64,000 nt of DNA from an uncultured virus (IMG/VR IMGVR_UViG_3300027782_003801) (IMGVR_UViG_3300027782_003801); one strand, 5' to 3'. Shown: positions 46,278 to 64,000, counted from the stretch's first letter. The notes: generated from the sequence alone by a model not told the origin. Numbers and translations: made by a program.

Positions 46278-46325
46278 CAAAGATAACATTAATTTTGTAT
46301 ATTCCAAATAATATCCTTATCTTTG
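46278..46325. promoter_or_regulatory. Overlapping divergent Bacteroidota-type promoters
   Basis: TATCTTTG on both strands (46318 +, 46278 -), each with an upstream TTTG. Confidence 0.7.
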
Positions 46326-46329
46326 TTAT

Positions 46330-46988: not shown

Positions 46989-46989
46989 T

Positions 46990-47503: not shown

Positions 47504-47504
47504 T

Positions 47505-48107
47505 ATGAGAATTTTAATATTAACACATCAAAGGTCTGGTGGATTATCTTTAGTGTCTTGGATTTCAAGAGAATTAAATTTTATATTGTACCATGAACCA
47601 TTCTCAATAAATTATTATGATGAAGGGATTATTAATGATGTTATGAATAATGATAATATCGTTGTAAAAGAATTTCAATATAATATTGAAAAAGGAGGGT
47701 TTAATTTAAATGATGTAATATCTAAATTTGATAAAGTGATAATACATTATAGAGGTAACTATAACGATGTGGCAATTAGTTTAACATATTTTGACAAAAA
47801 CGATGGGACTAAAATGCATAAGACATATGAAATGACCGATGAATGGATAAAAGATAATGAAGAAGAGATTGAAAAAATGAAAGTAATTAATAATGAAATG
47901 TATTGTAGTGTCCAAAGATTAAAAATTGAAGGGTCTTTGACAACAACTTACGATGGAATATATAATGATAAATCTGATATACCAAAACTTTTAGAGTTTT
48001 TAAATGTGACTTATCCAAGACATTTAGATATATTAGATAAAAGGCATAAATTACAAAATGGTGATGTTGGAATGGATGATGTTAAAGTTAAACGAAAAAT
48101 AATATGA
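47505..48107 (+). CDS. Sulfotransferase-like (Stf0-type) P-loop protein
   Basis: ILTHQRSGGLSL, HEPF, VVK, R....VAIS, TYD. Confidence 0.6.
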   Translation: MRILILTHQRSGGLSLVSWISRELNFILYHEPFSINYYDEGIINDVMNNDNIVVKEFQYNIEKGGFNLNDVISKFDKVIIHYRGNYNDVAISLTYFDKNDGTKMHKTYEMTDEWIKDNEEEIEKMKVINNEMYCSVQRLKIEGSLTTTYDGIYNDKSDIPKLLEFLNVTYPRHLDILDKRHKLQNGDVGMDDVKVKRKII

Positions 48108-48283
48108 ATATATTGGAACTATATGAAAGATATAATAAAGTGTATGAAATTGAATTAAGAGAAGTTGCAACTCCATATCATTTACAACTTATGAAAGAGA
48201 TTGATATGTTAGAGAAGTTAACAATAGATGAGTTTAAAGAAAAATTAAATAACATAGATTTTAAAAAGAAATGGGGAAATTAA
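48104..48283 (+). CDS. Hypothetical protein (59 aa)
   Basis: Manual translation; fills gap with overlaps at both ends. Confidence 0.55.
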   Translation: MNILELYERYNKVYEIELREVATPYHLQLMKEIDMLEKLTIDEFKEKLNNIDFKKKWGN

Positions 48284-49020
48284 AGTGTGCGGTATTAATA
48301 TTTGGACCTTACAGAGAATTTGACACTGTATATGATTCTTGGTCTTTTATGGAACATTACGAATGCGATTATTATATATCTACATGGGATAGAAATAAAA
48401 TGTCACATAAAGGACACGGTGTGGAAATTAATGAGGTTATTACAAAAGAAATGATATTGTCTAAATTACCTTGTGCAACAATTGCGATAAAGGAAGATGA
48501 TGACAGGTATCTAAATAATAACTGTAAAATGTCATTTCATTGGAAAACCTGTCTTCAATTGTTGGAGGAAAGTAATAAAGAATATGATATATGTTTATTA
48601 ACTAGATTTGATAATTTCACAACACCATTTAATAGTTGGAATGATATTGATAAAAATGAAATATATACTGAAATTGATAACAAACCATTTATGATGGAAA
48701 ATGTAATGTCATTGAATGATTATTTTTATTTAGGTAACTTTGAGAAGATGAAAGAAATTATTAGAAAATTTCCTGTTGTTTCAAAAGACCCACACGGTGA
48801 TATGTATAATGTTATAAAAGATTTAAATATAAAGTTAATCAATTTGTTTGAAAAAAATGATAACACCAAAGGTGTGCAAATTATTCAAGCTAGACCCAAT
48901 TCAAGGGGAATGGAACATTTAGAATATAGTAGATTAGTAACTTTAAATGTAGAGTGGTGTGATGGTTGGGATAAAGAGTTTATTCATCCTCCAGGATATT
49001 ACCCATTTAATTCTAAATAA
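48271..49020 (+). CDS. Glycosyltransferase-like protein (paralog of the 37491 domains)
   Basis: AVLIFGPYREF, DYYISTW, FHWK, TRFD, DYFYLG. Confidence 0.6.
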   Translation: MGKLKCAVLIFGPYREFDTVYDSWSFMEHYECDYYISTWDRNKMSHKGHGVEINEVITKEMILSKLPCATIAIKEDDDRYLNNNCKMSFHWKTCLQLLEESNKEYDICLLTRFDNFTTPFNSWNDIDKNEIYTEIDNKPFMMENVMSLNDYFYLGNFEKMKEIIRKFPVVSKDPHGDMYNVIKDLNIKLINLFEKNDNTKGVQIIQARPNSRGMEHLEYSRLVTLNVEWCDGWDKEFIHPPGYYPFNSK

Positions 49021-49714
49021 TTTTTGAGATTATATGGTTATAAAATAAATCACATTGAACTTGGTGACCCAATTCCCCCATGTGATAATCAATAATTTCA
49101 TTATTTGTTTCCTCAATAATTCTTTGACCACCCTTATTTAAAACGATAGCAAGCGGATGATGTTCATATTGTCCCATTATATATTTTTTATCTAACTTTT
49201 CATTTAATGGTTTATTATAAATTATATTATCTTCACAAGACCAAAAATATAAATTAAATCCTACAAGTTTAGATAATTTAGACATTATTTCAATATAGTT
49301 TTTAACATCTTTAACGTATAACGGATGTGTTCTATTAATACAAATTTCTTCATGGACTTCTTTGTTAATTTTTTTTTCGGATATATCACCAGGACCATTA
49401 CATATCCAACTTTCGTTATACCAATTATCGTTTGCAACCCATCTATAACGACCCATATAAGACCACCCAACAATAACAGTATCATTTTTTTTTATTTCGT
49501 TCATGTGTTCAATAAAAGTGTGAAATATTAAATCATTACCTGAAGCCCCCTTAGCATAGTTAATGGGATTTAAATTTAACTTTTCAGACAGTAGTTCCAA
49601 CCATATTTTGGGTAAGTTACCACCTCTCCATTCTTTATACTTTATATAATGTGAGTTCATATCTAAGTTCCAACTCTCAGTGTAACTACATCCAAATCCA
49701 AATAAGTTATTCAT
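49013..49714 (-). CDS. SGNH/GDSL-like protein
   Basis: FGCSYT, GASGN, GWS..R, DYHMGELGH. Confidence 0.7.
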   Translation of the reverse strand: MNNLFGFGCSYTESWNLDMNSHYIKYKEWRGGNLPKIWLELLSEKLNLNPINYAKGASGNDLIFHTFIEHMNEIKKNDTVIVGWSYMGRYRWVANDNWYNESWICNGPGDISEKKINKEVHEEICINRTHPLYVKDVKNYIEIMSKLSKLVGFNLYFWSCEDNIIYNKPLNEKLDKKYIMGQYEHHPLAIVLNKGGQRIIEETNNEIIDYHMGELGHQVQCDLFYNHIISKII

Positions 49715-49797
49715 ATACCATAAATATGGTATTATTTAAGTTACTAACATCCAAAATCTGTTTTGGAATACCAAATATTATATGTATATTTAATCTT

Positions 49798-50250
49798 ATG
49801 GGACTCTCAACATTTAGATTTTTCAGGGGTATACTTCGTAAAGCGAGAGTAGTTCAATTAAGACATAGATTGACAAGAACACCAATTGCACACATACCAG
49901 TTCCCCCACACACAGCAACGATATCTGAATATCGTAGAGCGTTTATTAATGGATGGAGATCCTGTGAGTTCGGAAGGAACATATACGACTGCCCACATTC
50001 ATCATACGACCTGGTTGAAATACAATTAAAAAGGGAATGGGAATTTGGATTCACAGAATGTTTTAACACAAGACAAGAGGATTTTGTTGAGATTGACACA
50101 ACAATTACTCAAACAGATGAACAATGTTATCTAAATGGATGGGAACGAGCACAACAAGGACGTCCATTAAATGAAAACCCACATACATACGGGTCACACC
50201 AATTTAATATGTGGTATGTTGGGTGGAATGACTTTGTGGATAACCATTAG
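49798..50250 (+). CDS. FxFF-tag protein with two RMF/CrpP-like repeats
   Basis: MGLSTFRFFRG; AFINGW..G....CPH...W..GF and YLNGW..A..G....NPH...W..GW. Confidence 0.65.
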   Translation: MGLSTFRFFRGILRKARVVQLRHRLTRTPIAHIPVPPHTATISEYRRAFINGWRSCEFGRNIYDCPHSSYDLVEIQLKREWEFGFTECFNTRQEDFVEIDTTITQTDEQCYLNGWERAQQGRPLNENPHTYGSHQFNMWYVGWNDFVDNH

Positions 50251-50290
50251 AATATTTCGTATATCCAAACTAATATCTTATATTTGTATC

Positions 50291-50749
50291 ATGACCGACG
50301 CACAAATAGTAATATCAATTTTATCTGGTATAATATTTTTTTTATATCTCGTTAACAATTTAATATCACTTTCTAATGTTGAATTGTATATGAAAAAATA
50401 TAATGAATTACAACGTGGTGTGTATAAGTATGAACCAAATCCAAGTCTTCAATCACATTATTTTTATTTATACAGTTACGATATTAATACCGTTACATTC
50501 ACTAAAACTAATGTCTACATTTTATTCTTTCTTGATGGTGATATAAAACTAACAGAAAACAATTATATACATAAATGGCAAATATGGTGGTCAATACCAA
50601 CTTGGTATCATTATAGAAAACTTCATAAGTTAAAAGATGAGTTAATAGTAAATTATGAAAGAGGACTTGATTTTAGACAGATTTATGATAGAGCTGTAGA
50701 ATTAGAAAGGAAAAAAAATAAGTTAGAATTTAAATTTTTGCGGGGATGA
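50291..50749 (+). CDS. Membrane protein with C-terminal EFKFLRG tag
   Basis: Start after TATATTTG; N-terminal TM; ends KLEFKFLRG*. Confidence 0.7.
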   Translation: MTDAQIVISILSGIIFFLYLVNNLISLSNVELYMKKYNELQRGVYKYEPNPSLQSHYFYLYSYDINTVTFTKTNVYILFFLDGDIKLTENNYIHKWQIWWSIPTWYHYRKLHKLKDELIVNYERGLDFRQIYDRAVELERKKNKLEFKFLRG

Positions 50750-51261
50750 TAAAACCATTCAAACTACTTAATGGGTATGTCTATGATGATGAGTATACAT
50801 TACCAGTACGAACAGATCCACCATTTGGTATATCACATCGTCATTGGAATATGTTGCCACAGGATTTGAGAGGTGGAACGCTAATACATATGGAAATATA
50901 CATTGAGGGGTGGGAAGCTGGTCGCAATAATATCACCATCAATCCATATGAAGGTATTATCAATGACCCTATGGTTAGTGAATGGATTGAGTTGTGGAAT
51001 AGAGGACATCTAAGGTGGTCTGATAGAACAGGACAAAATTTTAGAAATGTAAATCCCAACCCACCAATAGATGAAACATATCCTGAATTCTATAACACAG
51101 ATGAATTTGTATTCTTTGACGTGACGCCAGTTGTGTATGATTCTGAATCTTATGTTCCATATAAATTCATGTTGTTTAGACATATTGAAGATGGGAACAC
51201 AGTACAAGGAAGTAGAATAACCCCCGAACACCCAATGTGGAATTTTCCTGATATAATTTAA
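50746..51261 (+). CDS. Tag-variant protein with an RMF-like segment
   Basis: MIKPFKLLNGY; YIEGWEAG....NPY...W..G. Confidence 0.65.
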   Translation: MIKPFKLLNGYVYDDEYTLPVRTDPPFGISHRHWNMLPQDLRGGTLIHMEIYIEGWEAGRNNITINPYEGIINDPMVSEWIELWNRGHLRWSDRTGQNFRNVNPNPPIDETYPEFYNTDEFVFFDVTPVVYDSESYVPYKFMLFRHIEDGNTVQGSRITPEHPMWNFPDII

Positions 51262-51274
51262 AAAACAAAATAAT

Positions 51275-51439
51275 ATGAGATTAAACGTAGAATTACTTGC
51301 AATTGATTTTTACAGAGTAGGAAGAAGTTGGATTTCTTTTTTAGAGATTAATTATGGTCACCCATTATTTTATTTAGAATGGGGACAAGGTATGAAAATA
51401 CAAATCAGTTTTTTATTTGGACTAATTAAAAATTATTAA
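51275..51439 (+). CDS. Hypothetical protein (54 aa)
   Basis: Manual translation MRLNVELLAIDFY... Confidence 0.55.
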   Translation: MRLNVELLAIDFYRVGRSWISFLEINYGHPLFYLEWGQGMKIQISFLFGLIKNY

Positions 51440-51440
51440 T

Positions 51441-51674
51441 ATGAAATTTGAAGAAGCGGAAGAAAAATCTTTAACCGTAAAATGGGAAATCGGAACTTGC
51501 TCGCAAGGAGAAAGGTGTTGGTGTAGAACGATTAAACCTATTGAACCTATACTTTTTGATGATGGAGATAGTCAAGATGAATATTGGATAGTTGGGTCTG
51601 GCGAGTTACATAAAAATATTGCGGAGTATTTTGTTGAACTCCATAATAAAAATATTGAAAACAAAATTAAATAA
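51441..51674 (+). CDS. Hypothetical protein
   Basis: C....CWCR.I..ELHN. Confidence 0.65.
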   Translation: MKFEEAEEKSLTVKWEIGTCSQGERCWCRTIKPIEPILFDDGDSQDEYWIVGSGELHKNIAEYFVELHNKNIENKIK

Positions 51675-51675
51675 T

Positions 51676-51855
51676 ATGAAATTTAGAAAAACACTCACAG
51701 ATAAACGTCTTGAAGAATTGTCTGATAAGGTAAGAAGAGGAACTCCAATCTTAATGAGTGAGGCAATTGAGGTGGTGGAATATCAAGAGATGTTAAAGAA
51801 GAATAAACTACCTTTCACAGATAGAATACTTAATTTCTTTAAAATAAAACAATAA
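51676..51855 (+). CDS. Hypothetical protein
   Basis: ATG after previous stop. Confidence 0.6.
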   Translation: MKFRKTLTDKRLEELSDKVRRGTPILMSEAIEVVEYQEMLKKNKLPFTDRILNFFKIKQ

Positions 51856-51860
51856 AGATT

Positions 51861-52088
51861 ATGAAAACATTTAAGTTCCTCTCAAAGAAACAAGTTCCTA
51901 TACCAAATAGATATAGTAGTTTAAGTCCTGAGGATAGAAACATATACACAAAAGGATATTATGATGCGTTTGATTGTTATAATCATAGTCGTTCGTTAGA
52001 GTCACCATACAATCCACTTGTGGAAGAATATGAGTATGAATTATGGAGAGAGGGAGTTACGATGTATGAACGAAATAATAATGTATAA
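51861..52088 (+). CDS. FKFL-tag protein with an RMF-like segment
   Basis: MKTFKFLSK; YTKGYYDA....SPY....W..G. Confidence 0.65.
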   Translation: MKTFKFLSKKQVPIPNRYSSLSPEDRNIYTKGYYDAFDCYNHSRSLESPYNPLVEEYEYELWREGVTMYERNNNV

Positions 52089-52486
52089 TGATAAAGGATT
52101 TCAAATTCTTTAGATCTAACATAACAAGGGTTAATTGGCAACTAACCGGTTTATTAGATGATGCAACAAATGTTCCATTATTGATTGGTGTATTGGACAT
52201 CACATACAAATATATTCAGGATAATAATCTAATGGATAATGATAGGGTTAATAATATGTTGATTATTATTATGACTAAATTATACAGAGACAAATATAAT
52301 TCTTATAGTGATTATGATATTAGAGGTAAGATTGATGAGGTTATGATTCATATGGATAGTGTCACAATAAGAAGATATATACAAGAACTTGCAGCGGGTG
52401 CTTGGACTAGTATTGATGTTGAAGCGGAGATTAATCATATTATTTATGAAAAATGTAAATGGGAAGAACATGATCACGGATTTTAA
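52088..52486 (+). CDS. FKFF-tag protein with major-capsid-like segments
   Basis: MIKDFKFFRS; WQLTGLLD and IDVEAEI. Confidence 0.65.
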   Translation: MIKDFKFFRSNITRVNWQLTGLLDDATNVPLLIGVLDITYKYIQDNNLMDNDRVNNMLIIIMTKLYRDKYNSYSDYDIRGKIDEVMIHMDSVTIRRYIQELAAGAWTSIDVEAEINHIIYEKCKWEEHDHGF

Positions 52487-52862
52487 ATTTTTATCGGGGG
52501 TGAAATCCATGTTGGATATGTATGGTAGAGAAATCAATCCAAATCATTATCAAACAATCAGTTTAACCGGCAATCTTCGTTTTCTAAAAGAATACCATAG
52601 AAGATTGGATTGTTTTTATATGTCACATTATAATATGTTTAATGATAGACATCCATTGTATAATCAATCATTAGAATTATATGATAGAACGGTTGGATTT
52701 ATTAATGGAGGTCATATAACAACCCATGAAGAGATAAGGAGATTTGTTCATATCGCTTATTCAGATATGGTCTATGGAGTATTTGAACCGTGGGAAATGG
52801 GTGGAGCAACAAATCAGGAGATATTAGTTGATACATATAACTTTATAAACCCAAGACGATGA
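52470..52862 (+). CDS. FKFL-tag protein
   Basis: MITDFKFLSG. Confidence 0.65.
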   Translation: MITDFKFLSGVKSMLDMYGREINPNHYQTISLTGNLRFLKEYHRRLDCFYMSHYNMFNDRHPLYNQSLELYDRTVGFINGGHITTHEEIRRFVHIAYSDMVYGVFEPWEMGGATNQEILVDTYNFINPRR

Positions 52863-53185
52863 AGGACTTCAAATTTCTCACCAAGAACAATACCATAAAC
52901 TTTAACGGACAAATGTCCATTGAGGCACTTAGATATTTCAATGATTATGTCAATAATGTAATTAGATATGAAATCTCAACACCAACCGCAACATATAGGA
53001 TGGTGGATTACACTTATGGTGACGGTAATATTGTGGCAGGAACTATCAACGCACATCCATCAGGTGTATCCAATGTAATGGTCACCTATAGTATAAGGAA
53101 CGGGGAGATTACGGGACACACAATACATTTAGATTACTGGAATACGGCGGGACAGTTAGTAAACGCATTAAGAGAGACACAATAA
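52859..53185 (+). CDS. FKFL-tag protein
   Basis: MKDFKFLTK. Confidence 0.65.
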   Translation: MKDFKFLTKNNTINFNGQMSIEALRYFNDYVNNVIRYEISTPTATYRMVDYTYGDGNIVAGTINAHPSGVSNVMVTYSIRNGEITGHTIHLDYWNTAGQLVNALRETQ

Positions 53186-53205
53186 AGACCCATACCACTG
53201 TGAAT

Positions 53206-53433
53206 GGGGATTCCGGCGTACGAAAACAATGATGGAGATAACCAGCACTAATCATAAATAACCATCTTAATGCACGAGAAAACCGGCATTAGAGATTCAC
53301 TTTACATAATATTACCAATATACTTTACATTATATGTAAAAACATATACCAAAATTAAAAACAGACGTAAAATGAATTTCACTATATCCAAATACATATA
53401 ATTCAAAAGCGACTAGATGTCCTCAGTCAGATA
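53206..53433. repeat. Composite intergenic element, copy 1
   Basis: GGGGATTCCGGCGTACGAAAACAAT (53206-30) and AAAGCGACTAGATGTCCTCAGTCAGATA (53406-33). Confidence 0.85.
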
Positions 53434-53464
53434 ATATTATAAACTAATAGGATATTTATATACA

Positions 53465-54988
53465 ATGAAGTTTTTAGACATTATAAACGAATCCGAAGAA
53501 GAAAGGTTATTAAAGAGAGGAAAGACAATCTTTAAAGCATTTAAGGAGGGAACAATCACACGTACTGATGGAGTATCGTTTAGTTATGTATTAGATAACA
53601 ATGTGGAGATGATGGTAAGAAACGGGGAATTAGAACTATACGGATCTGTTTCCAAGATAGTAGAAAAAACCTATTGTCCAATCAATGAAAGGTATATGAC
53701 GGAGTTAATAGAGAATAGATTTCGTAAGTTCTATATTACCACAGATTTAAGACCTCCAAGTAAAGACAACATACATAAGTTCCAAGGAAAGAAACCGTGG
53801 GAAGAGGACTTAAATGATTTAGTGTACTTAAATGAATCCAACGAGTATAAACTAATTAGAAAGGGGAAACTTATATTCAAGGCGTTAAGAAAGGGAACCA
53901 TAGGGTCTGAGGATGAACCTAATAAACCTATGTTTACTTATGAATTATCCGATGATATGTCTGTAAGTTTACATGAAGGTGAAATTATCATTTTTACAGA
54001 TGAGATTAAGGTTGTGGAACTGAATGAACCATGTGTAAGAATGAGCACGGATTTAATGGCACGTAAAATTAGTAATAGGTTTAAGCAATTTAAAGTTACA
54101 TTGTCACATCCACCAATACATCCTTTTAATGTGGATAGTTATTATGATAGACGTAAGAAAGAAGAATTAAACGAGAATTTGGTCCATATAATAACGGATG
54201 AAGATAAAAAAAAGGTTAAACTCGTTCATAAAGCAATAAGTTCGGGTGTTGTTAAGGTAAATGACGTTAGATATAGATATGAACTTCCTAAGAACTACCA
54301 AATGAGTCCAGCGAATAATAAAATTATACGTATTAGATTTGAGTTTTATAATGGGGATTTAATTGGTCCCAACCGTGGGGAGAAGTTACCATTAAAGTTA
54401 TGGAGAATAGAAGAGGGTAAGGATATATATATCAATGGATTATTAGATAATACGGATGTATCAGATATATGTTATGGTGAACACTATCATCAGAAAGAAA
54501 CGACACAGGAGTATATGATGGTTAAAAATGCGGTTCGTAGGAGATATAATAACTTTAACATTTCATTAGATGTGTCCCCCAAAGATAGAACATTAAAGGT
54601 ATTTAATAATAATCCAGTAAATGAACAGGATGATGTGGTTATTACAGATGATTATATCTACCCAACCAAAGAACAGAAGAAAAGGGCAAAGATATTCTAT
54701 CATGCGTTTAAGACGGGGAAGTTCACAATAGAAGACGATGGTGGAACGTACAAATATGTTCTTCCTGATGAGTATTATGTAAGTGTGGCGGGTGATGGTG
54801 TATTAAATATTGTTTTAACCATGAATCCCCAACAAAAAATGAAGATGTATTTTGTACATAAGGATCATGAGACGGGAGAAACAATAGAAAAAGACATAGA
54901 CACTTCAAAAAGAACTTACCTACATCAATGGATGAAGGATAAGATAGAGAATAAATTCAAACAATTCCAAATTAATTTTATATTTTAA
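53465..54988 (+). CDS. Four-repeat putative virion-internal polyprotein
   Basis: Four units of roughly 110-150 aa, each opening with (I/L/V)NE..K+.K.I(F/Y)+A...G and closing with N+F+.F.I. Confidence 0.75.
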   Translation: MKFLDIINESEEERLLKRGKTIFKAFKEGTITRTDGVSFSYVLDNNVEMMVRNGELELYGSVSKIVEKTYCPINERYMTELIENRFRKFYITTDLRPPSKDNIHKFQGKKPWEEDLNDLVYLNESNEYKLIRKGKLIFKALRKGTIGSEDEPNKPMFTYELSDDMSVSLHEGEIIIFTDEIKVVELNEPCVRMSTDLMARKISNRFKQFKVTLSHPPIHPFNVDSYYDRRKKEELNENLVHIITDEDKKKVKLVHKAISSGVVKVNDVRYRYELPKNYQMSPANNKIIRIRFEFYNGDLIGPNRGEKLPLKLWRIEEGKDIYINGLLDNTDVSDICYGEHYHQKETTQEYMMVKNAVRRRYNNFNISLDVSPKDRTLKVFNNNPVNEQDDVVITDDYIYPTKEQKKRAKIFYHAFKTGKFTIEDDGGTYKYVLPDEYYVSVAGDGVLNIVLTMNPQQKMKMYFVHKDHETGETIEKDIDTSKRTYLHQWMKDKIENKFKQFQINFIF

Positions 54989-55348
54989 ATGAAACTATTA
55001 GATATACTAAATGAGGATGCTGAGGTGGATGTCCCAAAGGAGAAAAAGAGGGTTAAAACCGTATTCAGGGCGTTAAGGTCAGGGGTTATGTTTGTCCCAT
55101 TCTTGGGATATAAAATTAAATATGAACTTAATAACGACTACCAATTAAGTGTGGGGATAGGTAAAGGTCATAGTGACACCATTCTGTTTATTCCATCTGA
55201 TGACAAGACACCAAAGATAAAGTTATATGAGATTGGGTCCGATGGGGTGGAAAGATATTTCAGTGTAAATGGATATGACGCCATATATCAAGCCATGTGG
55301 CAAATGATAAGTCAAAGGTTCAAAAATTTCAAAATACATCTAAGATAA
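54989..55348 (+). CDS. Single-unit paralog of the repeat domain
   Basis: MKLLDILNE..KKRVKTVFRALRSG..YEL..QRFKNFKI. Confidence 0.75.
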   Translation: MKLLDILNEDAEVDVPKEKKRVKTVFRALRSGVMFVPFLGYKIKYELNNDYQLSVGIGKGHSDTILFIPSDDKTPKIKLYEIGSDGVERYFSVNGYDAIYQAMWQMISQRFKNFKIHLR

Positions 55349-55384
55349 TTAGGATATTCCAATTCGTACTAGTATATTTGTGGT

Positions 55385-55630
55385 ATGAAAATCCCAATTC
55401 AACTAACATACAAATACTTCAGTGAGACCATAACCATTAAGAAGAAGGTGGATAGTCTTCATATAGGAGATACCATGGAGATGTATAAAGGTATTATTGT
55501 CCCCATATATGGTCAGGAGAACTACGAGAGGGTTATAATAACACTTGCTCAAAGGATAATGGAACAAAGGAGAAAGAAGGAACCCAAAACACTAATCAAA
55601 AGGATTGTGGATAAAATATTGTATTATTGA
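55385..55630 (+). CDS. Hypothetical protein
   Basis: Start after TATATTTG promoter. Confidence 0.65.
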   Translation: MKIPIQLTYKYFSETITIKKKVDSLHIGDTMEMYKGIIVPIYGQENYERVIITLAQRIMEQRRKKEPKTLIKRIVDKILYY

Positions 55631-55663
55631 TAATATAATGAAAATATTGTATAATTCGGAGAT

Positions 55664-56572
55664 ATGAAGATAACAAGTTTTAATATAAAGGTGAATAAGG
55701 ATTCCAAACTATTCATTGGAATAGGGGATAGTTTCTGTGAGGGTTCTGGAGCTCAACCAATTGAGATATGGGAGAAGTATGGTTGGGACAGATGGAAAAT
55801 GTCCTTATCGGATGAGGGGAGTGAATGGGCAATAAAGAACTCATTTGTGAATAAGATATGTGAGAGACATCTAAAGGACTTTACACCTGTTAATTTGGGT
55901 AGTGGGGGAAAGGGAAATAGATATGCCATAAGGGAACTATTCTTAAACCCAACAATTGATTTTAAGATTGCCAAGGAGAAGATTGTGGTATTTGCAATGT
56001 CAGGGATTGAAAGGTTGGACTTCTCCAATTCCATTGTAAGTGATAATAATGGTGACCATACAACAACGATATGGTCATATAATGAAGAAAATGTAATGAA
56101 AGGGTATTCGGGTTTATTGAGACCTGACGGGGAGAGTATAAACAATATAAGGTTTGCAATATCTGAATTTATGTTTGATATGTTTATGTTGACAAACTGG
56201 TGTGAGTTGAATAATGCTAAGTTACTATTGTTTAGTGGGTTTTCTAAAGAATATAACAGGGAACATTTTAACAGGTTATTGATTCAGGATAATGGTGGGC
56301 TTGATATTGATGTGGTTATGGAGAATACAAGATTATTGCTTGATAGAATGCCATGGGATAAGATTATTAGACCCATGGGATATGAATGTGTCACCGATAT
56401 GTTATTACACTTGGAAGGTAGGGATGATTTAAATGGACATCTTGGTGGAATAAATTACGAGACCATAGGAGAGAATCATTATTTAACCAAGTGTCAACAT
56501 CCATCATATAAAGGACACGAATTACTATCGGACATCATATATGAGAAGATTATAGAATGGGGTTACTTATAA
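55664..56572 (+). CDS. SGNH/GDSL-like protein
   Basis: IGDSFCEG, NLGSGGKGN, SGIER, HPSYKGH. Confidence 0.7.
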   Translation: MKITSFNIKVNKDSKLFIGIGDSFCEGSGAQPIEIWEKYGWDRWKMSLSDEGSEWAIKNSFVNKICERHLKDFTPVNLGSGGKGNRYAIRELFLNPTIDFKIAKEKIVVFAMSGIERLDFSNSIVSDNNGDHTTTIWSYNEENVMKGYSGLLRPDGESINNIRFAISEFMFDMFMLTNWCELNNAKLLLFSGFSKEYNREHFNRLLIQDNGGLDIDVVMENTRLLLDRMPWDKIIRPMGYECVTDMLLHLEGRDDLNGHLGGINYETIGENHYLTKCQHPSYKGHELLSDIIYEKIIEWGYL

Positions 56573-56589
56573 CTCACAACACCGAGAAC

Positions 56590-56696
56590 GGGGGTTCCGG
56601 CGTACGAAAACAATCCCAAAACTGGCGTCAGAATGTTAGATACTATATCCCAATTAGGTATAATCTCTAAAGCGACTAGATGTCCTCAGTCAGATA
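56590..56696. repeat. Composite intergenic element, copy 2
   Basis: 24/25 match at 56590-614 and 28/28 match at 56669-96 to copy 1. Confidence 0.85.
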
Positions 56697-56806
56697 TATT
56701 ATTATAATTCGTGGGATATCTAATGAATGTGGATAACTTATACAAGAAATAGTTTGGAATATAAAGAATATAATCGTATATTTGTATTATTAAACAATAA
56801 AAACAT

Positions 56807-57166
56807 ATGGAACAAGTATTATTAGAAAAAGACAATAAGAAAATCGGGTTGAAAGAGTTAGATGTTAAATTCTGTGGACATAGAGTTACAGGTTCAACAG
56901 GAAGAGAAACATTCCTAATCACATTATCTATTATCGGAGGTTTAGTCGGGGGATATTCTAAACTTAGTGAGTATTCAGAAGATATCTCAGAGGATAAAGA
57001 AACCTTCCATATAAGAAACCCTAAGAGTTATGACCAACAATTCATAAGAGAAATGGGAGATTATTATGTATGGTTTAACTACTCAAATGAACAAAAGAGA
57101 TATAGATTACAAAGTCTTGTTGAGAGATTAAATCTACAGGATAAATTCTACATTACATTGGATTAG
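56807..57166 (+). CDS. Hypothetical protein
   Basis: Own promoter (56777) and terminator. Confidence 0.7.
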   Translation: MEQVLLEKDNKKIGLKELDVKFCGHRVTGSTGRETFLITLSIIGGLVGGYSKLSEYSEDISEDKETFHIRNPKSYDQQFIREMGDYYVWFNYSNEQKRYRLQSLVERLNLQDKFYITLD

Positions 57167-57170
57167 TATA

Positions 57171-57195
57171 AGGGGACCTAAAGGTCCCTTTTTTA
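57171..57195 (+). terminator. Intrinsic terminator
   Basis: gggacct/aggtccc stem followed by T-run. Confidence 0.7.
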
Positions 57196-58074
57196 TTCCT
57201 CCTTGGTAAGGGACTTATAGACCTGGTACAAGGAACCTATTATGGAGATAATCATAAGGATAAAGATGTATATCATAGGGTATTATTTGGATATAAAGAT
57301 AGGATAAACTTCCGAGATTGTCCACGTTTTAGTTCCGACTTTGGACCTGTTTTATCCCACTATGTCTCCGACATCTGTGTCGGGAACATCCTGTTTACCC
57401 CCCGACGAGGACCTTTAGGTCCGAGATAATTGTCCTGTTTAAGGTACATTTTTCCCACCTTAATACCCCCGAAAATTACCCCTAATTTATCCCCGATATT
57501 GATACTAATATCCCCACTTTATTCACCTTGATCTGTCGGGATCCATTTAGGGGATGGAATTCCCACTTTTAGCGTATATTTATTGATACCGTATATAATA
57601 TCGGTAATTTGGGGAGAAAGTGGGGAAAAGTGGTAGTATGTGGGGATTGACCCCTGACCGAATCAAGGACCATATCCATAAAAATTTGAATATATAACTG
57701 TATTACGGGGTCCTTCGGACCCCTTCAGGGGTGACACAATGTCCATTTATGTTATGTATATGAATAACCCATCATACGTAATACAGTGGTTAGTAATACA
57801 TCCCATTCCATTTAACATAATGTACGTTATAGGTTCACAAGTAATACACATCTTTATCCACACCCATCCCCTGAAGGGACGACCGTAGGATCGTCCCGTA
57901 ATACACTTGCCAGACAATATCGGTAGATTTAATGTTTAACCATTTAAGTGTAATACTTACACAAAACTTGCCAAACAATATTGTCCGTCATACATCCGTT
58001 CGTCTACGGTAATACATAAAACCTGAAGGGGACCCATAGGGTCCCCGAACAATTAAAATATGTGCTTGTGTGTA
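57196..58074. other. Non-coding hairpin- and iteron-rich node at the transcription convergence point
   Basis: 8 GTAATAC/GTATTAC, 3 CCTGAA-GGG-hairpin-CCC units, TCCCCACTTT/AAAGTGGGGA inverted repeat, DnaA box at 57854. Confidence 0.75.
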
Positions 58075-58914
58075 TTACGCGGAGAAGTCTATACCGAAGT
58101 GTTTAAACCTATTTTTCAACCATTCTTTAAAGTCATCTTTTTCATCGTAATTAAGAGGACATGTATTACTTGTGATTTTAACCCCGTCAATATAGGCGTG
58201 ACCTGGACTATAACTTATTTCAAAATCGGGACTAATAATCTTATCCCTTTTATTATAGTTTTTATTCATTTGGTGTACGGTAATACTAGGTTGGTTAAAC
58301 TTACCGTAGTCATACGTGTGACCTTTCCAAGTTCCTTTACCCAAAGCCGTGTAGATTGTCTTACACTTCTTAACTAATTTGGTCATTGTGGTCGAGTAGT
58401 CTTCTGAGAACGTCGGTAATTGTTCTGGCAATAATAGGTATAAGTTTTCATTTTGAAATAATTCATATAATGAGTTTGGTCTTTCTATCTTCACATTATA
58501 GACATTATTGTCCATATAGTCTTTTAAGAATAATATCCCCTCCATAAGGGTTATTGTCACCCTTTCAATGTGGATTCTAAAATCCGTTCTATCTTTTAAC
58601 ACATCATAATAGTGATCAAGAAATTCTTCCTTGGACATGTTTCTTGCCAAACAAATTGTGTTGATCAGCTCGTCCCCCGCTATTTTAATTAAATCTGGTG
58701 GTATGATTGGATTAACATGATCAGGATTATATGTAACATACACTTCAAATTCTCTTTTTGAAACGAAACGATATGTAATATAACCTGTACCGCTGGTAAA
58801 CTTAAGTTTCTTCAAATACCGTAAATCATCAGATACCTTAAGTAGAAGGTTCGTAAGCTCAACCTTCTTTAGGTCACTCCCTGCTTGTTCTGATATAATG
58901 TCCATAATCTTCAT
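58075..58914 (-). CDS. Putative virion-internal protein with a C-terminal copy of the 53465 repeat domain
   Basis: Start MKIMDIISE after TATTTATA; KKCKTIYTALGKG..LKNRFKHFGI. Confidence 0.7.
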   Translation of the reverse strand: MKIMDIISEQAGSDLKKVELTNLLLKVSDDLRYLKKLKFTSGTGYITYRFVSKREFEVYVTYNPDHVNPIIPPDLIKIAGDELINTICLARNMSKEEFLDHYYDVLKDRTDFRIHIERVTITLMEGILFLKDYMDNNVYNVKIERPNSLYELFQNENLYLLLPEQLPTFSEDYSTTMTKLVKKCKTIYTALGKGTWKGHTYDYGKFNQPSITVHQMNKNYNKRDKIISPDFEISYSPGHAYIDGVKITSNTCPLNYDEKDDFKEWLKNRFKHFGIDFSA

Positions 58915-59034
58915 GTTATATAAATAGTTCTTTGCCAAACAATATTCGAGTCGGTCTTCCTGATCAGTGTCGTCTTTAAACAATAAACCCCCCACAATAG
59001 TGGAGGGTCTACTATCGTTCTTATAATCTACAGG

Positions 59035-59211
59035 TTATGCAGATAATAAAGTATTTCTGTAAGTAATCGCTGTTCTCTTGTTAGAGAAGTTCTTACTGTG
59101 TTTTGTTCCTTCTACAGATACACGAACACGGTAGCTGTTACCGTCGAAGTATACATTGTTAGATACAGGAACATAAGTTGTCTTGGTAGAACGAGATTTG
59201 GTTGTTTTCAT
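59035..59211 (-). CDS. 58-aa AP2/Arm-like DNA-binding protein
   Basis: Manual translation ...NVYFDGNSYRVRVSVEGTKHSKNFSNKRTAITYRN. Confidence 0.6.
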   Translation of the reverse strand: MKTTKSRSTKTTYVPVSNNVYFDGNSYRVRVSVEGTKHSKNFSNKRTAITYRNTLLSA

Positions 59212-59339
59212 TTTTACTGAATTTTAATTTAACATTATTGTTTATAAAATATAAACCATTAATTCGGTAAAAAAAAATAAATGGCAACTTATTTTTCGTT
59301 TTGTCAGAACTGGTGTTGCCAAACAACATTCACAGTGGA

Positions 59340-59480
59340 TCAGGACTCGAACTTCTTGTCAATCCATTTATACCACTCCTCACCGTACTTCTGTTCCATA
59401 TGGTTGAAGTACCTGTAATGTTTTCTCTCGTTGTAGAGGAAATACACGAAGTAATAATCTATGTACCACTCCAACTTCAT
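59340..59480 (-). CDS. Hypothetical protein (46 aa)
   Basis: Manual translation MKLEWYIDYYFVYFLYNERKH... Confidence 0.6.
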   Translation of the reverse strand: MKLEWYIDYYFVYFLYNERKHYRYFNHMEQKYGEEWYKWIDKKFES

Positions 59481-59481
59481 T

Positions 59482-59670
59482 TTAAATCTTTTCATGGTAT
59501 TCTATTTCAATGTTAACACTGTCTAAGTTGAATTCGTCGTAGAACTTCTCCAAGATATCAATCTTAGCATCTGCTGAAATGTATAGGATTAGTCCCATAT
59601 CCTTCTTTCGTTGAATCTTAGAGATTTGGTCCGTAACCCATAGTTTAACCATTTGGTCATTTAGTTTCAT
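59482..59670 (-). CDS. Hypothetical protein
   Basis: Start MKLNDQ; tiles the operon. Confidence 0.6.
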   Translation of the reverse strand: MKLNDQMVKLWVTDQISKIQRKKDMGLILYISADAKIDILEKFYDEFNLDSVNIEIEYHEKI

Positions 59671-59989
59671 CTTGTAGTATTTTATATTGTTTATCACCAA
59701 TAGTATCCAAGATATATGCCACCTCCACTATATCTTCCAAGTCATATGTGGATATGTCATCGAACTCATCACCATATGGTGTTACACCTGTCAAGTACTG
59801 TCCATCAGTCATTGTCCTTACAAGATACGGTACCTTAGTCATAGTTGCATCGTACTCATTATCCTCACTGATGTAAACATTAAATGGGTGGGTAAACTCT
59901 ATGGTTTCCCCGAGTTTGAATAGATTCTCTATCTCATTACAGAACTTGGTCTTCAGGTTCTTAACTTCTTCCCTTGAGTTGTAGTTCAT
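59657..59989 (-). CDS. Hypothetical protein
   Basis: ORF tiles the operon. Confidence 0.65.
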   Translation of the reverse strand: MNYNSREEVKNLKTKFCNEIENLFKLGETIEFTHPFNVYISEDNEYDATMTKVPYLVRTMTDGQYLTGVTPYGDEFDDISTYDLEDIVEVAYILDTIGDKQYKILQDETK

Positions 59990-60549
59990 ATTAATTCATT
60001 TAAAAATTTATTTGGAAATCTTTCCATACCAAAATCTATTGCAATTCCTACAATCTTTCCCTTGTGTTTTGCCACAAGACATCTGTATCCACCATCACCA
60101 ATACCTGATGACGATACCACACCTGTGTCATACATACCCCACGACTCGGTGGATAATGTGAATTGGCACATCTTCTCGTACCACTCATCACCATCCCTAT
60201 CTTTCACACCTAAGGTAAATGGTCTTCCATCATATGTCTTATCAGGTGTTGTAATACTTGAGGCAATGTCGTCATTCTTGAAAGAAGACATGCTGAAGAT
60301 TCCTGCTTGACCTGAATCCACCCCAACTTGACCAGGGTAATTTCTCCAAGATAATGTATCCTCCACATAATCCTCGTGGACAGTAAGTAATACAGAACAC
60401 CTGTTCCCCCAATTAGGGTCCTCAGTTTTTCTCACGGTAGTTATGTAACCACCAGGTAATACATCCTTTAGTTTTACTTGACACCAAGTTTCGTCCGAGT
60501 AGCAAGGGTCACTGACCATCACATCACTCTCAAGTGTAATACGGTTCAT
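59986..60549 (-). CDS. DUF4241-like protein
   Basis: VSDPCY, GVDSGQAGIF, SSGIGDGGY. Confidence 0.7.
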   Translation of the reverse strand: MNRITLESDVMVSDPCYSDETWCQVKLKDVLPGGYITTVRKTEDPNWGNRCSVLLTVHEDYVEDTLSWRNYPGQVGVDSGQAGIFSMSSFKNDDIASSITTPDKTYDGRPFTLGVKDRDGDEWYEKMCQFTLSTESWGMYDTGVVSSSGIGDGGYRCLVAKHKGKIVGIAIDFGMERFPNKFLNELI

Positions 60550-60600
60550 AGTTTATAAGTTTAGGGTTTAAAGTTATGACATAGTTATGATATCACAAAA

Positions 60601-61101
60601 TTATTTGGAATATATTCTTTTATAGTTATTAACATTTTCTACAATCTCTGTTAACATTACAGCGGATACCTTGTCATACGCCCTCAACATAAACAATTGA
60701 TTGCCAGACAACATTGCGAGATCTGCTGTCCCATCTTGGAAGTATAAATCTATTGGGTCTATTAGAACTCTAACTTCATTGATATCATTATCGGACCTAA
60801 AGAAAGGACAACGACCATACACATATGTATCTCTTACAGTGTAGAGTTTGATAGTGTCCTTCATGTTAGTTAAGGCTCTAATCTGCATAATGATTACTTC
60901 TAATTCAGACAACTGTTGAAAGTCCACCTTGTGTTTAGAAACTTTATTACTGTACTCTGTTACAAAATCTGCCAGACAATATCCACCTGGCTGATCAGAT
61001 CCGTGACTCCTTGTTATGAACTGGTCGTAAGTACTTCTTTCTTTAGAGGTACCTACAATGTTTACGAATACTCCTTCCGTGGTTTTATTTAACCTACCCA
61101 T
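60601..61101 (-). CDS. Hypothetical protein
   Basis: ORF; contains two copies of the 14-bp motif. Confidence 0.7.
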   Translation of the reverse strand: MGRLNKTTEGVFVNIVGTSKERSTYDQFITRSHGSDQPGGYCLADFVTEYSNKVSKHKVDFQQLSELEVIIMQIRALTNMKDTIKLYTVRDTYVYGRCPFFRSDNDINEVRVLIDPIDLYFQDGTADLAMLSGNQLFMLRAYDKVSAVMLTEIVENVNNYKRIYSK

Positions 61102-61316
61102 TATAGTATATTTAAATTGTTAATAAATTTGCCAAACAATATCGACCAGGATGATCTCTGTGGTTGTCCAAGAAAAACTCTGGTGTTAAACACATTGCCT
61201 CCATAATATGGAGTTGGTTTGTTGTAGTGACTTGCCACACCAAATTGGCGGAACCATTCGTCCTGAGGAGGTTGTTTTTCAGGATATGTTGTCTTACATA
61301 CTCTTTCTTTAGTCAT
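61101..61316 (-). CDS. Hypothetical protein
   Basis: Coupled ORF. Confidence 0.55.
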   Translation of the reverse strand: MTKERVCKTTYPEKQPPQDEWFRQFGVASHYNKPTPYYGGNVFNTRVFLGQPQRSSWSILFGKFINNLNIL

Positions 61317-61965
61317 TTAATTCTTCTTTAAGTTGTTTAATAATTGTTTCTTTATCTTCATCCGTTACGAAACCGAAGTTCTCGTTTACATATTCTACTA
61401 TTTTAACTTCATCTATTGTTTCATCCTCATCTTCTTCATCATCAGATGTTATTTCATCACGAGCTGAATCAATCATAGATTCAAGCTCCGAATTCCAAAA
61501 CAACTCCTTGTCCAACAAATAAATGCCCTCCAAATAAGGATACTCACTATCATCAACCATTGTGAATCCATCTTCATCACGATAGATTTTGGTTTCACCA
61601 CTGAACCCTATACCACCTTCACTATAGAAGATGTAAGCTTCAATACCATCATACTGCTTAACCAAGTTGGTTAGAAATTCTATGGGAGGACTCCAAGCTG
61701 TATCAGGATATAATCTGATTTCAGTTTCATCATAATCCATATTACAATCACTATATGACACATCCCATTTAGTCCCGAACCAACTTACATTGGTATTGTA
61801 CCAATCCTTATCATAATCGGCTTTAGTCATATGGTCAGGATATCCAATAAGGGATTGGAATACTCTGTCTTCACCATCTTTAGTATTTTCAATAACCCTT
61901 ACTAAAGTAGCTATAATTTTTTCATCTCCATTAATTCTAATGGAATTGTTACACCAGTTTGGCAT
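61309..61965 (-). CDS. YubB/DUF1281 ferredoxin-like domain protein
   Basis: MPNWCNN, WFGTKWD, TAWSPP, Y.EGG..F.G. Confidence 0.75.
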   Translation of the reverse strand: MPNWCNNSIRINGDEKIIATLVRVIENTKDGEDRVFQSLIGYPDHMTKADYDKDWYNTNVSWFGTKWDVSYSDCNMDYDETEIRLYPDTAWSPPIEFLTNLVKQYDGIEAYIFYSEGGIGFSGETKIYRDEDGFTMVDDSEYPYLEGIYLLDKELFWNSELESMIDSARDEITSDDEEDEDETIDEVKIVEYVNENFGFVTDEDKETIIKQLKEELND

Positions 61966-61983
61966 GATATATAATTTAATTGA

Positions 61984-62445
61984 TTACCAAGATGAACGAT
62001 AGTAAAAAGAAGCACCTTTATTATCTTCTTCTAATAAATCTTTAAGTTGAATAATAGTAGATTTAACTTCTTCCCAATAGTATTCGTCAATTTCATCACT
62101 ACCGAAGAAGAAACCCTGTGCTGTTGGCAGTATAGTTTCTGCAGTGTCTTTATTATCATAGACATATGTTAATGTTTCCAATAACATCTTCAGGTCTGAT
62201 TCATCTACAAAACATTCTTTACAATCATCCACACCCTCTTGTACATTATCGACGAACCATTTGTGAAGAGCATTAAACTTTCTCCACTCCATCACCTGTT
62301 CCATAACATAACAAATTCTGTCAGGTTTAATGTGGTCTAATTTCTTTTTACCTTTCTTAACAGAGATGGTGTGTCTTTCATTATCAGACATCCAATCCCA
62401 ATTCTTAACATAGTGTTTCTTGTAGAGATACATATCTAATCCCAT
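61984..62445 (-). CDS. Conserved-looking phage protein (MGLDMYL family)
   Basis: MGLDMYL, WRKFNALHKWF, LPT..GFFFG, YYRSSW. Confidence 0.75.
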   Translation of the reverse strand: MGLDMYLYKKHYVKNWDWMSDNERHTISVKKGKKKLDHIKPDRICYVMEQVMEWRKFNALHKWFVDNVQEGVDDCKECFVDESDLKMLLETLTYVYDNKDTAETILPTAQGFFFGSDEIDEYYWEEVKSTIIQLKDLLEEDNKGASFYYRSSW

Positions 62446-62667
62446 AGTTGTAAGTTTTAGGATACAAAGATAATGAATATTCTTTTATAACGCCAAATTA
62501 TTTAAAGCTTTTTTTATAAAAAAACATGCGCGCAGATCAGGTGGATATTGTTTGGCAAATTCTGTTATTGATTATCAATGAGTTATGTTTTGCCAAACAA
62601 CATCGTTGCTGCGCGCAGATCTGCAGCATGCTATGCGAAACAAGTATTACATGCGAAACAACATAGC

Positions 62668-62699
62668 AAAAAAATCCCCCGTACTTCTACGAGGGATTG
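62668..62699 (-). terminator. Intrinsic terminator
   Basis: aatccctcgta/tacgggggatt stem followed by T-run on minus strand. Confidence 0.65.
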
Positions 62700-62725
62700 A
62701 ACTAAACTTACTAACCCACATCCAT

Positions 62726-62905
62726 TTATTTTTTACAAACTAAATCACTCAATAGTCGAGAACTACCTTTGATTATTATTGTTTCTTTCATTGCTTCGTC
62801 AATCGTTGTAATACCCTTCTTGTGTAGTTTGAAATCAGTACCATTGTTGGTGTACCAAATTTCATACGTTTTGTTGTTTGAAGACAACTTAATAGTGGTC
62901 GTCAT
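62726..62905 (-). CDS. Hypothetical protein
   Basis: Start MTTTIK. Confidence 0.55.
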   Translation of the reverse strand: MTTTIKLSSNNKTYEIWYTNNGTDFKLHKKGITTIDEAMKETIIIKGSSRLLSDLVCKK

Positions 62906-63024
62906 AGTTTTACGGATTTGTTGAAATGCTAAAGTAATACAAAAAACAATACAAACCAACAAATTTATTTTTATTTATTTTTGCCAGACAATATCCGTCA
63001 GGGGCCCACAGGTATTACACCAAA

Positions 63025-63054
63025 TAAAAATGGGTATCATTTCTGATACCCATC
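63025..63054 (-). terminator. Intrinsic terminator
   Basis: atgggtatca/tgatacccat stem followed by T-run on minus strand. Confidence 0.7.
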
Positions 63055-63119
63055 GTATAACAAACACTCTCCATATAAACACTATATAATATACCGAATA
63101 TTTTGGATATAAACAAATA

Positions 63120-63416
63120 TTACCAACCATCTACTTCATTTGGATTGGTTGAGAGAGTATTATTCAATACTTGTATCATCTCACCCACTTTATCCATATA
63201 ATAAATCTCGGCTGTGGGTTCATTACCATTCTCACTTGGTTGTAATACTTCATTTAAACCATCAATTTCTTCCCAACCAATATCCTCCAGGTCCCCTCTG
63301 TCATACATTTCTTTAGCAATCTTGACAGCTTCGTTTAAATCGTTAGCCTTTACCTCAAACTCGGTTTTCATCCATGTTGTTACCTTTTGGTCAAGGCGAA
63401 AGTCAAATGTTTTCAT
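63120..63416 (-). CDS. Hypothetical protein
   Basis: FEVKANDLNEA motif; ORF. Confidence 0.7.
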   Translation of the reverse strand: MKTFDFRLDQKVTTWMKTEFEVKANDLNEAVKIAKEMYDRGDLEDIGWEEIDGLNEVLQPSENGNEPTAEIYYMDKVGEMIQVLNNTLSTNPNEVDGW

Positions 63417-63427
63417 ATTGTTTTATT

Positions 63428-63610
63428 TTAAAATTTACCTACGTGTTTTCCCCTATGAGCCCCGTATTTCTTTTCAAATTTCATGATGGCTTCACGAGGC
63501 GTGTGCATCCAATACGTCTCCTCGTTCCCTTTTTTATTCCATATATTAATCACCAAACCATCTTGGTTAAAGTGCATAAGTGGAGGTTCTTTTTTCATAA
63601 CTTTTTTCAT
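63428..63610 (-). CDS. Hypothetical protein
   Basis: ORF tiles the operon. Confidence 0.55.
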   Translation of the reverse strand: MKKVMKKEPPLMHFNQDGLVINIWNKKGNEETYWMHTPREAIMKFEKKYGAHRGKHVGKF

Positions 63611-63611
63611 A

Positions 63612-63866
63612 TTATCTCCGATTTTTATTTATCTCCACAAGACGTTCCCAACTCCAAGTTATTTTTTTCTTTCGTCTGTTCATCGTCATTATCACAAACA
63701 CATCTTCTCTATCACCAGTACCCACACCTTCCCACCATTTTGACGGAACGATTTCAAGATAGATTTCAATACCATCATTTATTTCTTTATCAGTAAAATT
63801 ACTATTAAAATATTTTACATACTCAAAGAACTCATCTCTTTTCTTTTTTGAAATTTTCTTTTCCAT
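63612..63866 (-). CDS. Hypothetical protein
   Basis: ORF tiles the operon. Confidence 0.65.
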   Translation of the reverse strand: MEKKISKKKRDEFFEYVKYFNSNFTDKEINDGIEIYLEIVPSKWWEGVGTGDREDVFVIMTMNRRKKKITWSWERLVEINKNRR

Positions 63867-63869
63867 AAC

Positions 63870-64000
63870 TTAATATTTACTTCTAATACCCCTTCTACGA
63901 TATAAGTCGTCGTACGGGTTAATATTTGGTTTAAGTGATTCATTGATTAATGTAATGTCAGCTTCAGATATTTCATCCACAAACTTCTTATCAAGGTCAT
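63870..64000 (-). CDS. 3' end of a hypothetical protein (partial)
   Basis: Open frame ...DLDKKFVDEISEAD...RSKY*. Confidence 0.5.
   Translation of the reverse strand, partial: DLDKKFVDEISEADITLINESLKPNINPYDDLYRRRGIRSKY

Follow-up and report, generated by a model that had tools for sequence, protein, structure and literature searches.

The window analysed here is a 64,000-nucleotide stretch of DNA from an uncultured virus (IMG/VR IMGVR_UViG_3300027782_003801), numbered 1 to 64000 on the + strand as shown, and near its 3' end, among small minus-strand genes, an asymmetric 14-mer, TTGCCARACAAYAT, recurs as a dispersed array (Table 1). Nine exact copies, eight on the + strand and one on the -, lie in 57907-62994, and near copies at 60969 (one mismatch) and 58644 (two mismatches) complete the 11 (10 +, 1 -) counted in a preliminary description of this DNA, a figure that holds as a total and not as a count of exact copies. 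Allowing up to two mismatches the whole window holds 16 matches where 3.4 are expected, a number equalled in none of 100 shuffles. Outside 57907-62994 a one-mismatch copy at 40780 had been taken to be the only one, but a second is found at 34181 on the - strand. Copies within open reading frames fall in several frames, and the readings MLSGN, YCLAD, ILFGK and ICLAR were all reproduced.

The array is under selection as DNA and is shared with related phages. Of 62 alleles of the gene for a 166-residue protein 27 are non-redundant; in these the TTG and GGC codons of the in-gene site are each present in 27/27, while codon identity elsewhere in the gene has a median of 0.52 (141 codons, pairs with the same residue); this synonymous freeze at in-gene copies indicates that selection acts on the DNA, as had been proposed. 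Proteins of the window have a median identity of 75-87% to those of the relatives G004 (335,630 bp) and G006. The large relatives are 310-336 kb long at 31-35% GC and 5/5 encode bS21, which adjoins TerL in G004; the phage fits among the freshwater bS21-encoding Bacteroidetes phage clades of the available text of PMC9723584, and the runs best matching the DNA are freshwater or lake wherever a habitat is stated. In complete or near-complete relatives the sites, 14-44 in each, are restricted to one block of 15-29 kb: 40/42 position weight matrix matches lie within 22.3-40.3 kb of G004, 33/36 within 41.7-59.7 kb of G003 and 14/16 within 232.8-261.3 kb of G002, and in G014, the phage of the CCAGTAAA word, 37 of 38 listed CCAGTAAANT matches lie within 156-174 kb. 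The motif is thus kept in related phages, whose lack of it would have counted against the first description. Nor is the array limited to 5 kb, as had been thought, since locus L519, 99.94% identical to the window over 8,728 bp, carries 31 sites over 12.7 kb. The block is made up of small genes that share a strand and are separated by promoter-like and terminator-like elements, an anatomy from which we infer that these are early genes.

Table 1. Features of the array-bearing end of the window (offsets of GATC are on the 3' side of the copy).
Feature	Position	Strand	Remarks
Depth step, putative boundary of long terminal repeat (genome end)	57425..57476		From contig depths
Putative terminal repeat with small minus-strand genes and array	57476..64000		Continues past the window, to at least the equivalent of ~70.6 kb
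Conserved end-proximal element GGGGATTGAC	57642..57651	+	Near-invariant in 6 aligned relatives; in further loci too
dif-like site TGAACCTATAA CGTACA TTATGTTAAAT	57810..57837	-	Arms match Bacteroidota chromosomes
DnaA-box-like 9-mer TTATCCACA	57854..57862	+	Single copy, possibly chance
Motif copy, exact, end-proximal	57907..57920	+	Its word is kept even in array-switched lineages
Second box TGT[AC]ATAC (TGTMATAC), ten copies	57949..63306		Window otherwise free of the box
Motif copy, exact	57968..57981	+	Preceded by TGTAATAC box at 57949
Motif copy, 2 mismatches	58644..58657	+	Within open reading frame 58075-58914; GATC at +6
Motif copy, exact, intergenic	58932..58945	+	GATC at +17
58-residue protein, three strands and helix, AP2/integrase-arm-like	59035..59211	-	In 39/41 loci
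Motif copy, exact, intergenic	59316..59329	+	GATC at +9
166-residue protein, family-less	60601..61101	-	Leading candidate binder; two motif copies in its own gene
Motif copy, exact	60701..60714	+	At codons 130-134 of the 166-residue gene, with frozen synonymous positions; GATC at +6
Motif copy, 1 mismatch	60969..60982	+	In 166-residue gene, codons 40-45; GATC at +11 and +16
Motif copy, exact	61129..61142	+	In open reading frame 61101-61316; GATC at +11
218-residue acidic protein, DUF1281_C (Api92-like ferredoxin domain)	61309..61965	-	PF18406 E 1.7e-6, over cut-off
Motif copy, exact	62545..62558	-	Reverse half of back-to-back pair; GATC at +7
Motif copy, exact	62590..62603	+	Forward half of back-to-back pair; GATC at +15
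Intrinsic-terminator-like hairpin	62673..62698	-	Upstream, in the sense of transcription, of the 62545/62590 pair
Motif copy, exact	62981..62994	+	~27 bp behind T-tract of terminator 63029-63054; no GATC

The word itself differs between lineages. At the same syntenic block relatives carry TTGCCAAACTAA, GCCAAACATTAT, TGCGAAACAA, TCCAGTAAA, CCCCAGTAA, TTTCCAGTTTTAT, TTGCCAGAGAA, GCCAGTCATAAT or CTAGACAAAAT. The change is made in concert at nearly every copy with the positions of the sites kept, and includes coding sites: in L394 and L398 the copy around codon 125 of the 166-residue gene has switched along with the rest. One or two copies of TTGCCARACAA nevertheless survive in 11/16 switched loci, 40-450 bp from the end element, and this survival of the old word near the end element hints at a second, conserved reader of the word at the genome end.

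Contig depth points to the nature of the block. Along 44001-64000 the depth rises in the bin 57341-58007 in four of four runs, with median ratios across the step at ~57.45 kb of 1.86, 2.32, 1.95 and 2.03 (contig depths, summed over organisms, and not copy numbers); the bins of one run, X5, are noisy and overlap (left maximum 33.9, right minimum 30.6). The boundary is placed to 50 bp from run X1 alone, possibly the source sample of the window, in which the contig at 57108-57425 has a depth of 9.2 and that at 57476-62085 a depth of 21.6 with zero differences. The doubling of contig depth at this point in 4/4 runs makes a long terminal repeat the most likely identity of the array-bearing block, twofold coverage steps being the mark of such repeats in phiCbK-like phages in the available text of PMC3556154. 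The contig ends of metagenome loci show no pile-up at any single position; TerL is of the Terminase_6N family and the terminase is T4-type, so that packaging may start at a fixed point and finish by an imprecise headful.

The orientation of the sites is tied to transcription. In eight genomes 165 of 235 sites are antisense and 70 sense, and inside genes the figures are 32 and 4. When a T-tract lies within 120 bp of an antisense site, the site sits 26-43 bp behind it in 45/66 cases (T-tracts by a simple regular expression, compared without a shuffled control), and the sense copies are mostly partners of antisense copies in back-to-back pairs, such as that at 62545/62590, which lies upstream of a TAnnTTTG promoter-like box at 62472. 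In the end-proximal third of the block 51 sites point inward and 2 outward, against 62 and 35 in the far third (six genomes); the polarity first described therefore holds near the 57.5-kb end and gives way to mixed orientation at the other. The flanks are likewise one-sided: the first 20 bases on the 3' side have ~55% GC and are TA-poor and CWG-rich, GC being higher in the 3' than in the 5' flank in 40/42 loci and CWG enriched in 39/42. The arrays of L513 and L515 are without a GC-rich 3' flank (0.23 and 0.32 GC). Outside the block G002, G003, G004, G014 and the window all avoid CCAG (0.45-0.69), though it lies inside several versions of the word. The second box also belongs to the block, with 0.8-2.3 copies per kb inside and 0.03-0.06 outside (four genomes), and is frequently found directly 5' of a 14-mer or 42-44 bp from its start.

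A further property of the flanks is GATC, avoided in the window as a whole (observed/expected 0.24). It occurs 6-17 nt to the 3' side of 8/11 copies and to the 5' side of 1/11, where random placement gives 0.53 (p=5e-5), and its density is 2.14/kb beyond 57450 and 0.59/kb before, bearing out both the association and the local excess that had been seen by eye. The same is not true of the restriction-type words reported beside it: among 33 such words in the window flanks GATC alone is clearly over dinucleotide shuffles (9 vs 2.9), AGCT, TCGA, CCWGG and GANTC are at chance, and GCGC (p 0.042) and GGSCC (p 0.047), both borderline, would fail under 33 tests. For this reason a general restriction-site library finds no support as the core function, and across five genomes there is no negative correlation between avoidance of a word in the genome and its enrichment in the flanks. 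Even GATC passes the flank test by genome only in the window and in G014; in G004 it is not enriched (3 vs 3.9), G003 has 0 GATC in 310,691 bp, and 12/42 segments wholly lack it while retaining the array and its GC-rich flank, which speaks against methylation-gated packaging as first suggested. Where GATC is present it is phased. With look-alike flanks removed (754/1,120 kept), GATC starts in 175 single-GATC flanks form peaks at +6/7, +10/11, +16 and +20 that are separated by troughs (p=0.001, jitter test), a period of ~5 bp, and CCAGT lineages peak instead at +8 to +10; the phasing may come partly from homology left among the sites. GATC is therefore a real feature, placed by a set geometry, but an optional one.

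Two genes of the block are near-universal, those of the 58- and 166-residue proteins, and our leading guess is that the latter binds the 14-mer. A repeated word of the same type is present in all 44 loci examined with the 166-residue family (the longer, non-redundant 44 of 125). The family comprises 269 clusters at 50% identity and diverges rapidly, identity between relatives being 28-53% in most pairs against genome medians of 56-80%, and 82% with the closest relative. The model (predicted local distance difference test, pLDDT, 88) has a coiled coil and a three-stranded sheet, with Y93, Y95, R97, R102 and R111 near-invariant. Fold searches with it gave generic helical matches only (best Z 5.6; none at Foldseek E<=0.001) and none in the Atlas, an outcome from which no new fold can be claimed; the family was not found in 151 Bacteroidota genomes, in a search without a positive control. 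The 58-residue protein has no Pfam match; its model (E-E-E-H, pLDDT 82) superimposes on 2GCC with a root-mean-square deviation of 1.7 over 41 residues, a weak match (Z 3.8, rank 40), and in its Atlas clusters 12% of members have PF02920 and 26% PF14657 (at 0.90 and 0.88). This AP2-like protein is nearly unchanged across word switches and is present without the array at 14/46 loci (L411-L424, 52-57% identity), and so better suits the invariant second box; it is more likely to bind TGTMATAC, itself a guess, than the 14-mer. The 218-residue acidic DUF1281 protein is missing from 6/41 segments. Scans of 22 window proteins and 14 block proteins of relatives gave no helix-turn-helix match, and the binder may also be a virion or host factor. 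The region and two of its proteins were matchless in the GenBank phage collection. Two further proteins of the repeat in G004 are a 248-residue block protein at 35090-35836 with a DGQHR motif, by which we take it to be ParB/Srx-like (sub-threshold GmrSD_N match only), and a DUF932 protein at 33932-34777 (E 1e-20); neither has residual correlation with the word.

Our preferred reading, to which we give a probability of about 45%, is that the 14-mers are polar roadblock or insulator sites for a phage-encoded DNA-binding protein. It retains from the preliminary description a protein-binding signal that is DNA-level, conserved and linked both to the genome end and to GATC, and drops the restriction library and the methylation-gated packaging. 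A phage protein would dock on the asymmetric word, covering it together with ~20-25 bp on the 3' side, and the array would mark the terminal repeat in which the early genes lie. Given the footprint of RNA polymerase, copies ~33 bp behind a T-tract would stall the enzyme over the terminator, and back-to-back pairs would insulate neighbouring early units in both directions. In-gene and end-proximal copies would halt transcription of the last operon before the genome end and switch off the early genes, the binder's own included. GATC would be tolerated under the footprint, favoured there at set helical phases in those lineages able to afford it and dispensable elsewhere, and a change of word would let a phage evade silencing by a resident relative. 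That the bound protein shields GATC as a by-product is plausible, given that 26 of 43 GATC in G014 lie in flanks.

Several observations weigh against this roadblock model. It leaves the enrichment and phasing of GATC unexplained, as it does the survival of the old word at the genome end in the switched loci. A regex-defined T-tract is near only 66/165 antisense sites, and the spacing from terminators could be mere tight packing in intergenic space. The terminal repeat rests on contig depth at one boundary only. As for the binder, the correlation of distances with the word is weak for both candidates (166-residue protein, partial 0.24; AP2-like, 0.11) and strongest for the acidic DUF1281 protein (0.55), which is missing from 6 loci; no residue-base co-variation between the 166-residue protein and the word stood out, and L389 and L410 are near-identical in its sheet yet differ in word.

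The array could instead handle the terminal repeat as DNA, in its duplication at packaging, in pairing of its two copies for circularisation, as a polar barrier to forks or nucleases, or in capping the ends, with host XerCD acting at dif in one sub-clade and the placement by terminators merely reflecting free space. We regard this as unlikely, though the strongest of the alternatives. The array starts ~430 bp inside the depth step and 70 bp from dif, 51 of the 53 sites in the end-proximal third point inward, TTGCCARACAA is kept near the end element, and 4/5 genomes have no integrase; moreover in-gene copies fill the long operon, and the clusters are more even than random in 4/5 TTGCCA genomes tested. 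Yet the T5 and SPO1 repeats do without a comparable dispersed word, dif is found in just 6/22 loci, orientation at the far end is mixed, and tight spacing from terminators would not be needed. Rather unlikely, in our judgement, is a composite in which a telomere-like nucleoprotein forms on the repeats, by polar docking of a new protein family, with GATC presented to host enzymes at fixed phases of the helix, whether as bait or as methylation sensor, protein and 30-45 sites re-specifying jointly between lineages, and a separate conserved factor that retains the ancestral word at the very end. A little less likely again is anti-restriction, in which a protein bound at entry would shield GATC or present it as bait, trapping or disarming a host GATC nuclease or methylase on redundant DNA. 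It draws on G014, in which GATC outside the block is at 0.02 of expectation and 26 of the 43 in 324 kb fall in 44 flanks (7.5 expected), on L519, where 15/18 GATC of the array are within 25 nt 3' of a site, on enrichment in 23/30 GATC-bearing loci (related, not independent) and on the phasing peaks. Against it, array and flank persist in the 12/42 loci without any GATC, enrichment does not extend to other avoided words (bottom-decile tests non-significant in 9/10 comparisons), the footprints would span ~1/10 of the repeat, and, in the available text of PMC10644984, sites located in the repeat are the vulnerable ones in T5-like phages.

Sites for a borrowed host protein (matS-, parS- or KOPS-like), or a depth step produced by two co-occurring phages that share the block, are very unlikely. 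A host-type dif adjoins the array and exact matches in 151 Bacteroidota genomes number 55 against 14 for the reversed control, but these are at most four scattered, unclustered copies per host genome in that sample, 458 kb of dif flanks hold one near match, and the word differs between phage lineages. Contig depths do sum over organisms, yet the 4.6-kb X1 contig is free of differences at twice its neighbour's depth. Least probable, we think, is a methylation-gated packaging or replication signal like P1 pac. A P1-type pac requires a compact cluster of Dam sites at the cut; here GATC is near the genome end too, but is dispensable and dispersed over 13-18 kb, unclustered at the cut, and neither of the two end-proximal copies in the window has GATC on its 3' side. 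G002, G003, G004 and G014 share a D12-class adenine methylase, the array starts beside the genome end and TerL is Terminase_6N, all as such a signal would have it, although G003, GATC-free, retains both array and methylase. The D12-class methylase is common to relatives, GATC-free ones included.

Among known systems the closest in working, on the preferred roadblock reading, would be the stoperators of cluster A mycobacteriophages (L5, TipsytheTRex), orientation-dependent asymmetric 13-mers (available text of PMC9283540). Both have at least 20 asymmetric sites of 13-14 bp, mostly intergenic, in an orientation tied to transcription and with a specificity that diverges among relatives; in contrast to what that text describes, the array here is confined to one terminal block, sits behind intrinsic terminators, has back-to-back pairs and bears a one-sided GC/GATC flank. 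Integrase is absent from the records of 4/5 relatives, and none of the block proteins scanned has a helix-turn-helix match. We do not count the array as a member, because its distribution is not genome-wide and such a repressor was not identified. The block itself resembles the terminal repeats of T5, BF23, SPO1 and phiCbK, which are 10-17 kb long at double coverage, hold small early genes and have hairpins and DnaA-box-like words at a boundary (10.1101/866236, PMC10644984 and PMC3556154, as far as their available text goes). Annotations of T5 give A1/A2 as pre-early shut-off and DNA binding, and its genes nearest the entering end point toward that end. Unlike here, T5 and SPO1 repeats hold no dispersed 14-mer (their top 10-mers have 5-7 copies, those of SPO1 being ribosome-binding-like), the terminase here is T4-type, and restriction sites within the repeat are a weak point of T5-like phages (available text of PMC10644984), whereas the phages here concentrate GATC there. 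The bS21 freshwater phages match in gene, size and GC, but in the available text of PMC9723584 the genomes are curated as circles, the word 'motif' is absent and the passages with 'repeat' or 'terminal' are not about genome ends. The literature searched does not describe the array, though supplements such as the tables of that paper could still bear on it; nothing to the point came from the available text of PMC10914622, PMC12373910 and PMC12619734. TTF-I at Sal-box clusters of mammalian ribosomal DNA also uses orientation-dependent sites to stop polymerase and arrest forks (available text of PMC3772059); with eukaryotic RNA polymerase I and an unrelated protein it is a distant functional analogy only. 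matS/MatP shares a site array beside dif, but the word here is non-palindromic and not arrayed in hosts, and the host-type dif recalls Xer-dif systems but is present in one sub-clade only.

With the array comes a sequence marker for the genome ends, and for the module presumably expressed first, in an abundant clade of Bacteroidota jumbo phages that is uncultured. Concerted re-specification of 30-45 sites by a protein-site pair, with some of the sites coding, would be a natural experiment in the evolution of DNA recognition, and orthogonal polar terminators for use in Bacteroidota might be drawn from it. Should the array handle the repeat itself, synthetic DNA and a handful of small proteins would be enough to test how long terminal repeats are duplicated and protected.

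The end-proximal elements include a dif-like site whose two 11-bp arms agree with the Bacteroidota majority at 18/18 scored positions and whose 6-bp spacer differs; 67 of the 80 genome matches listed (the best 80 of 120 stretches) are Bacteroidota records. It is found in one sub-clade of the loci checked, with arms conserved and spacer variable, and lies ~350 bp inside the putative genome end. Within a terminal repeat it would be present twice, in direct repeat, on virion DNA, and host XerCD could cut out a unit-length circle through the paired sites. The 9-mer at 57854 is labelled by what we take to be the DnaA-box consensus, and a protein consisting of the DnaA C-terminal helix-turn-helix alone (PF08299, E 7e-17), encoded at 31838-32212 (+), could bind such boxes or compete with host DnaA. 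GGACC/GGTCC-type hairpins lie around the putative end at 57170, ~57710, 57876 and 58028, those within the repeat being conserved in relatives, and over 57170-58050 they resemble the T5 injection-stop region. A sigma-70 promoter scan was at chance level. An RNA reading of the region was dropped because no Rfam family or transfer RNA was found, and a replication origin or terminus was sought by GC skew, which tracks the coding strand and leaves a bidirectional pattern unclear. L196 and L206 hold the word in unrelated-looking tandem arrays of 60-bp and 30-bp period, probably coding repeats.

Elsewhere the window encodes DNA methylases at 12782-13480, 17903-18877 and 21176-21790 (one N6_N4_Mtase and two C-5 cytosine types). 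A NifU/IscU-like scaffold and a gene of the beta-keto acid cleavage enzyme family lie at 20077-20487 and 42295-43137. Sugar-nucleotide genes occupy 849-3391, 28357-28896 and 43761-44357 (epimerase, GDP-mannose dehydratase, two DegT-type and dTDP-sugar epimerase), a pathway reported for bS21 phages too.

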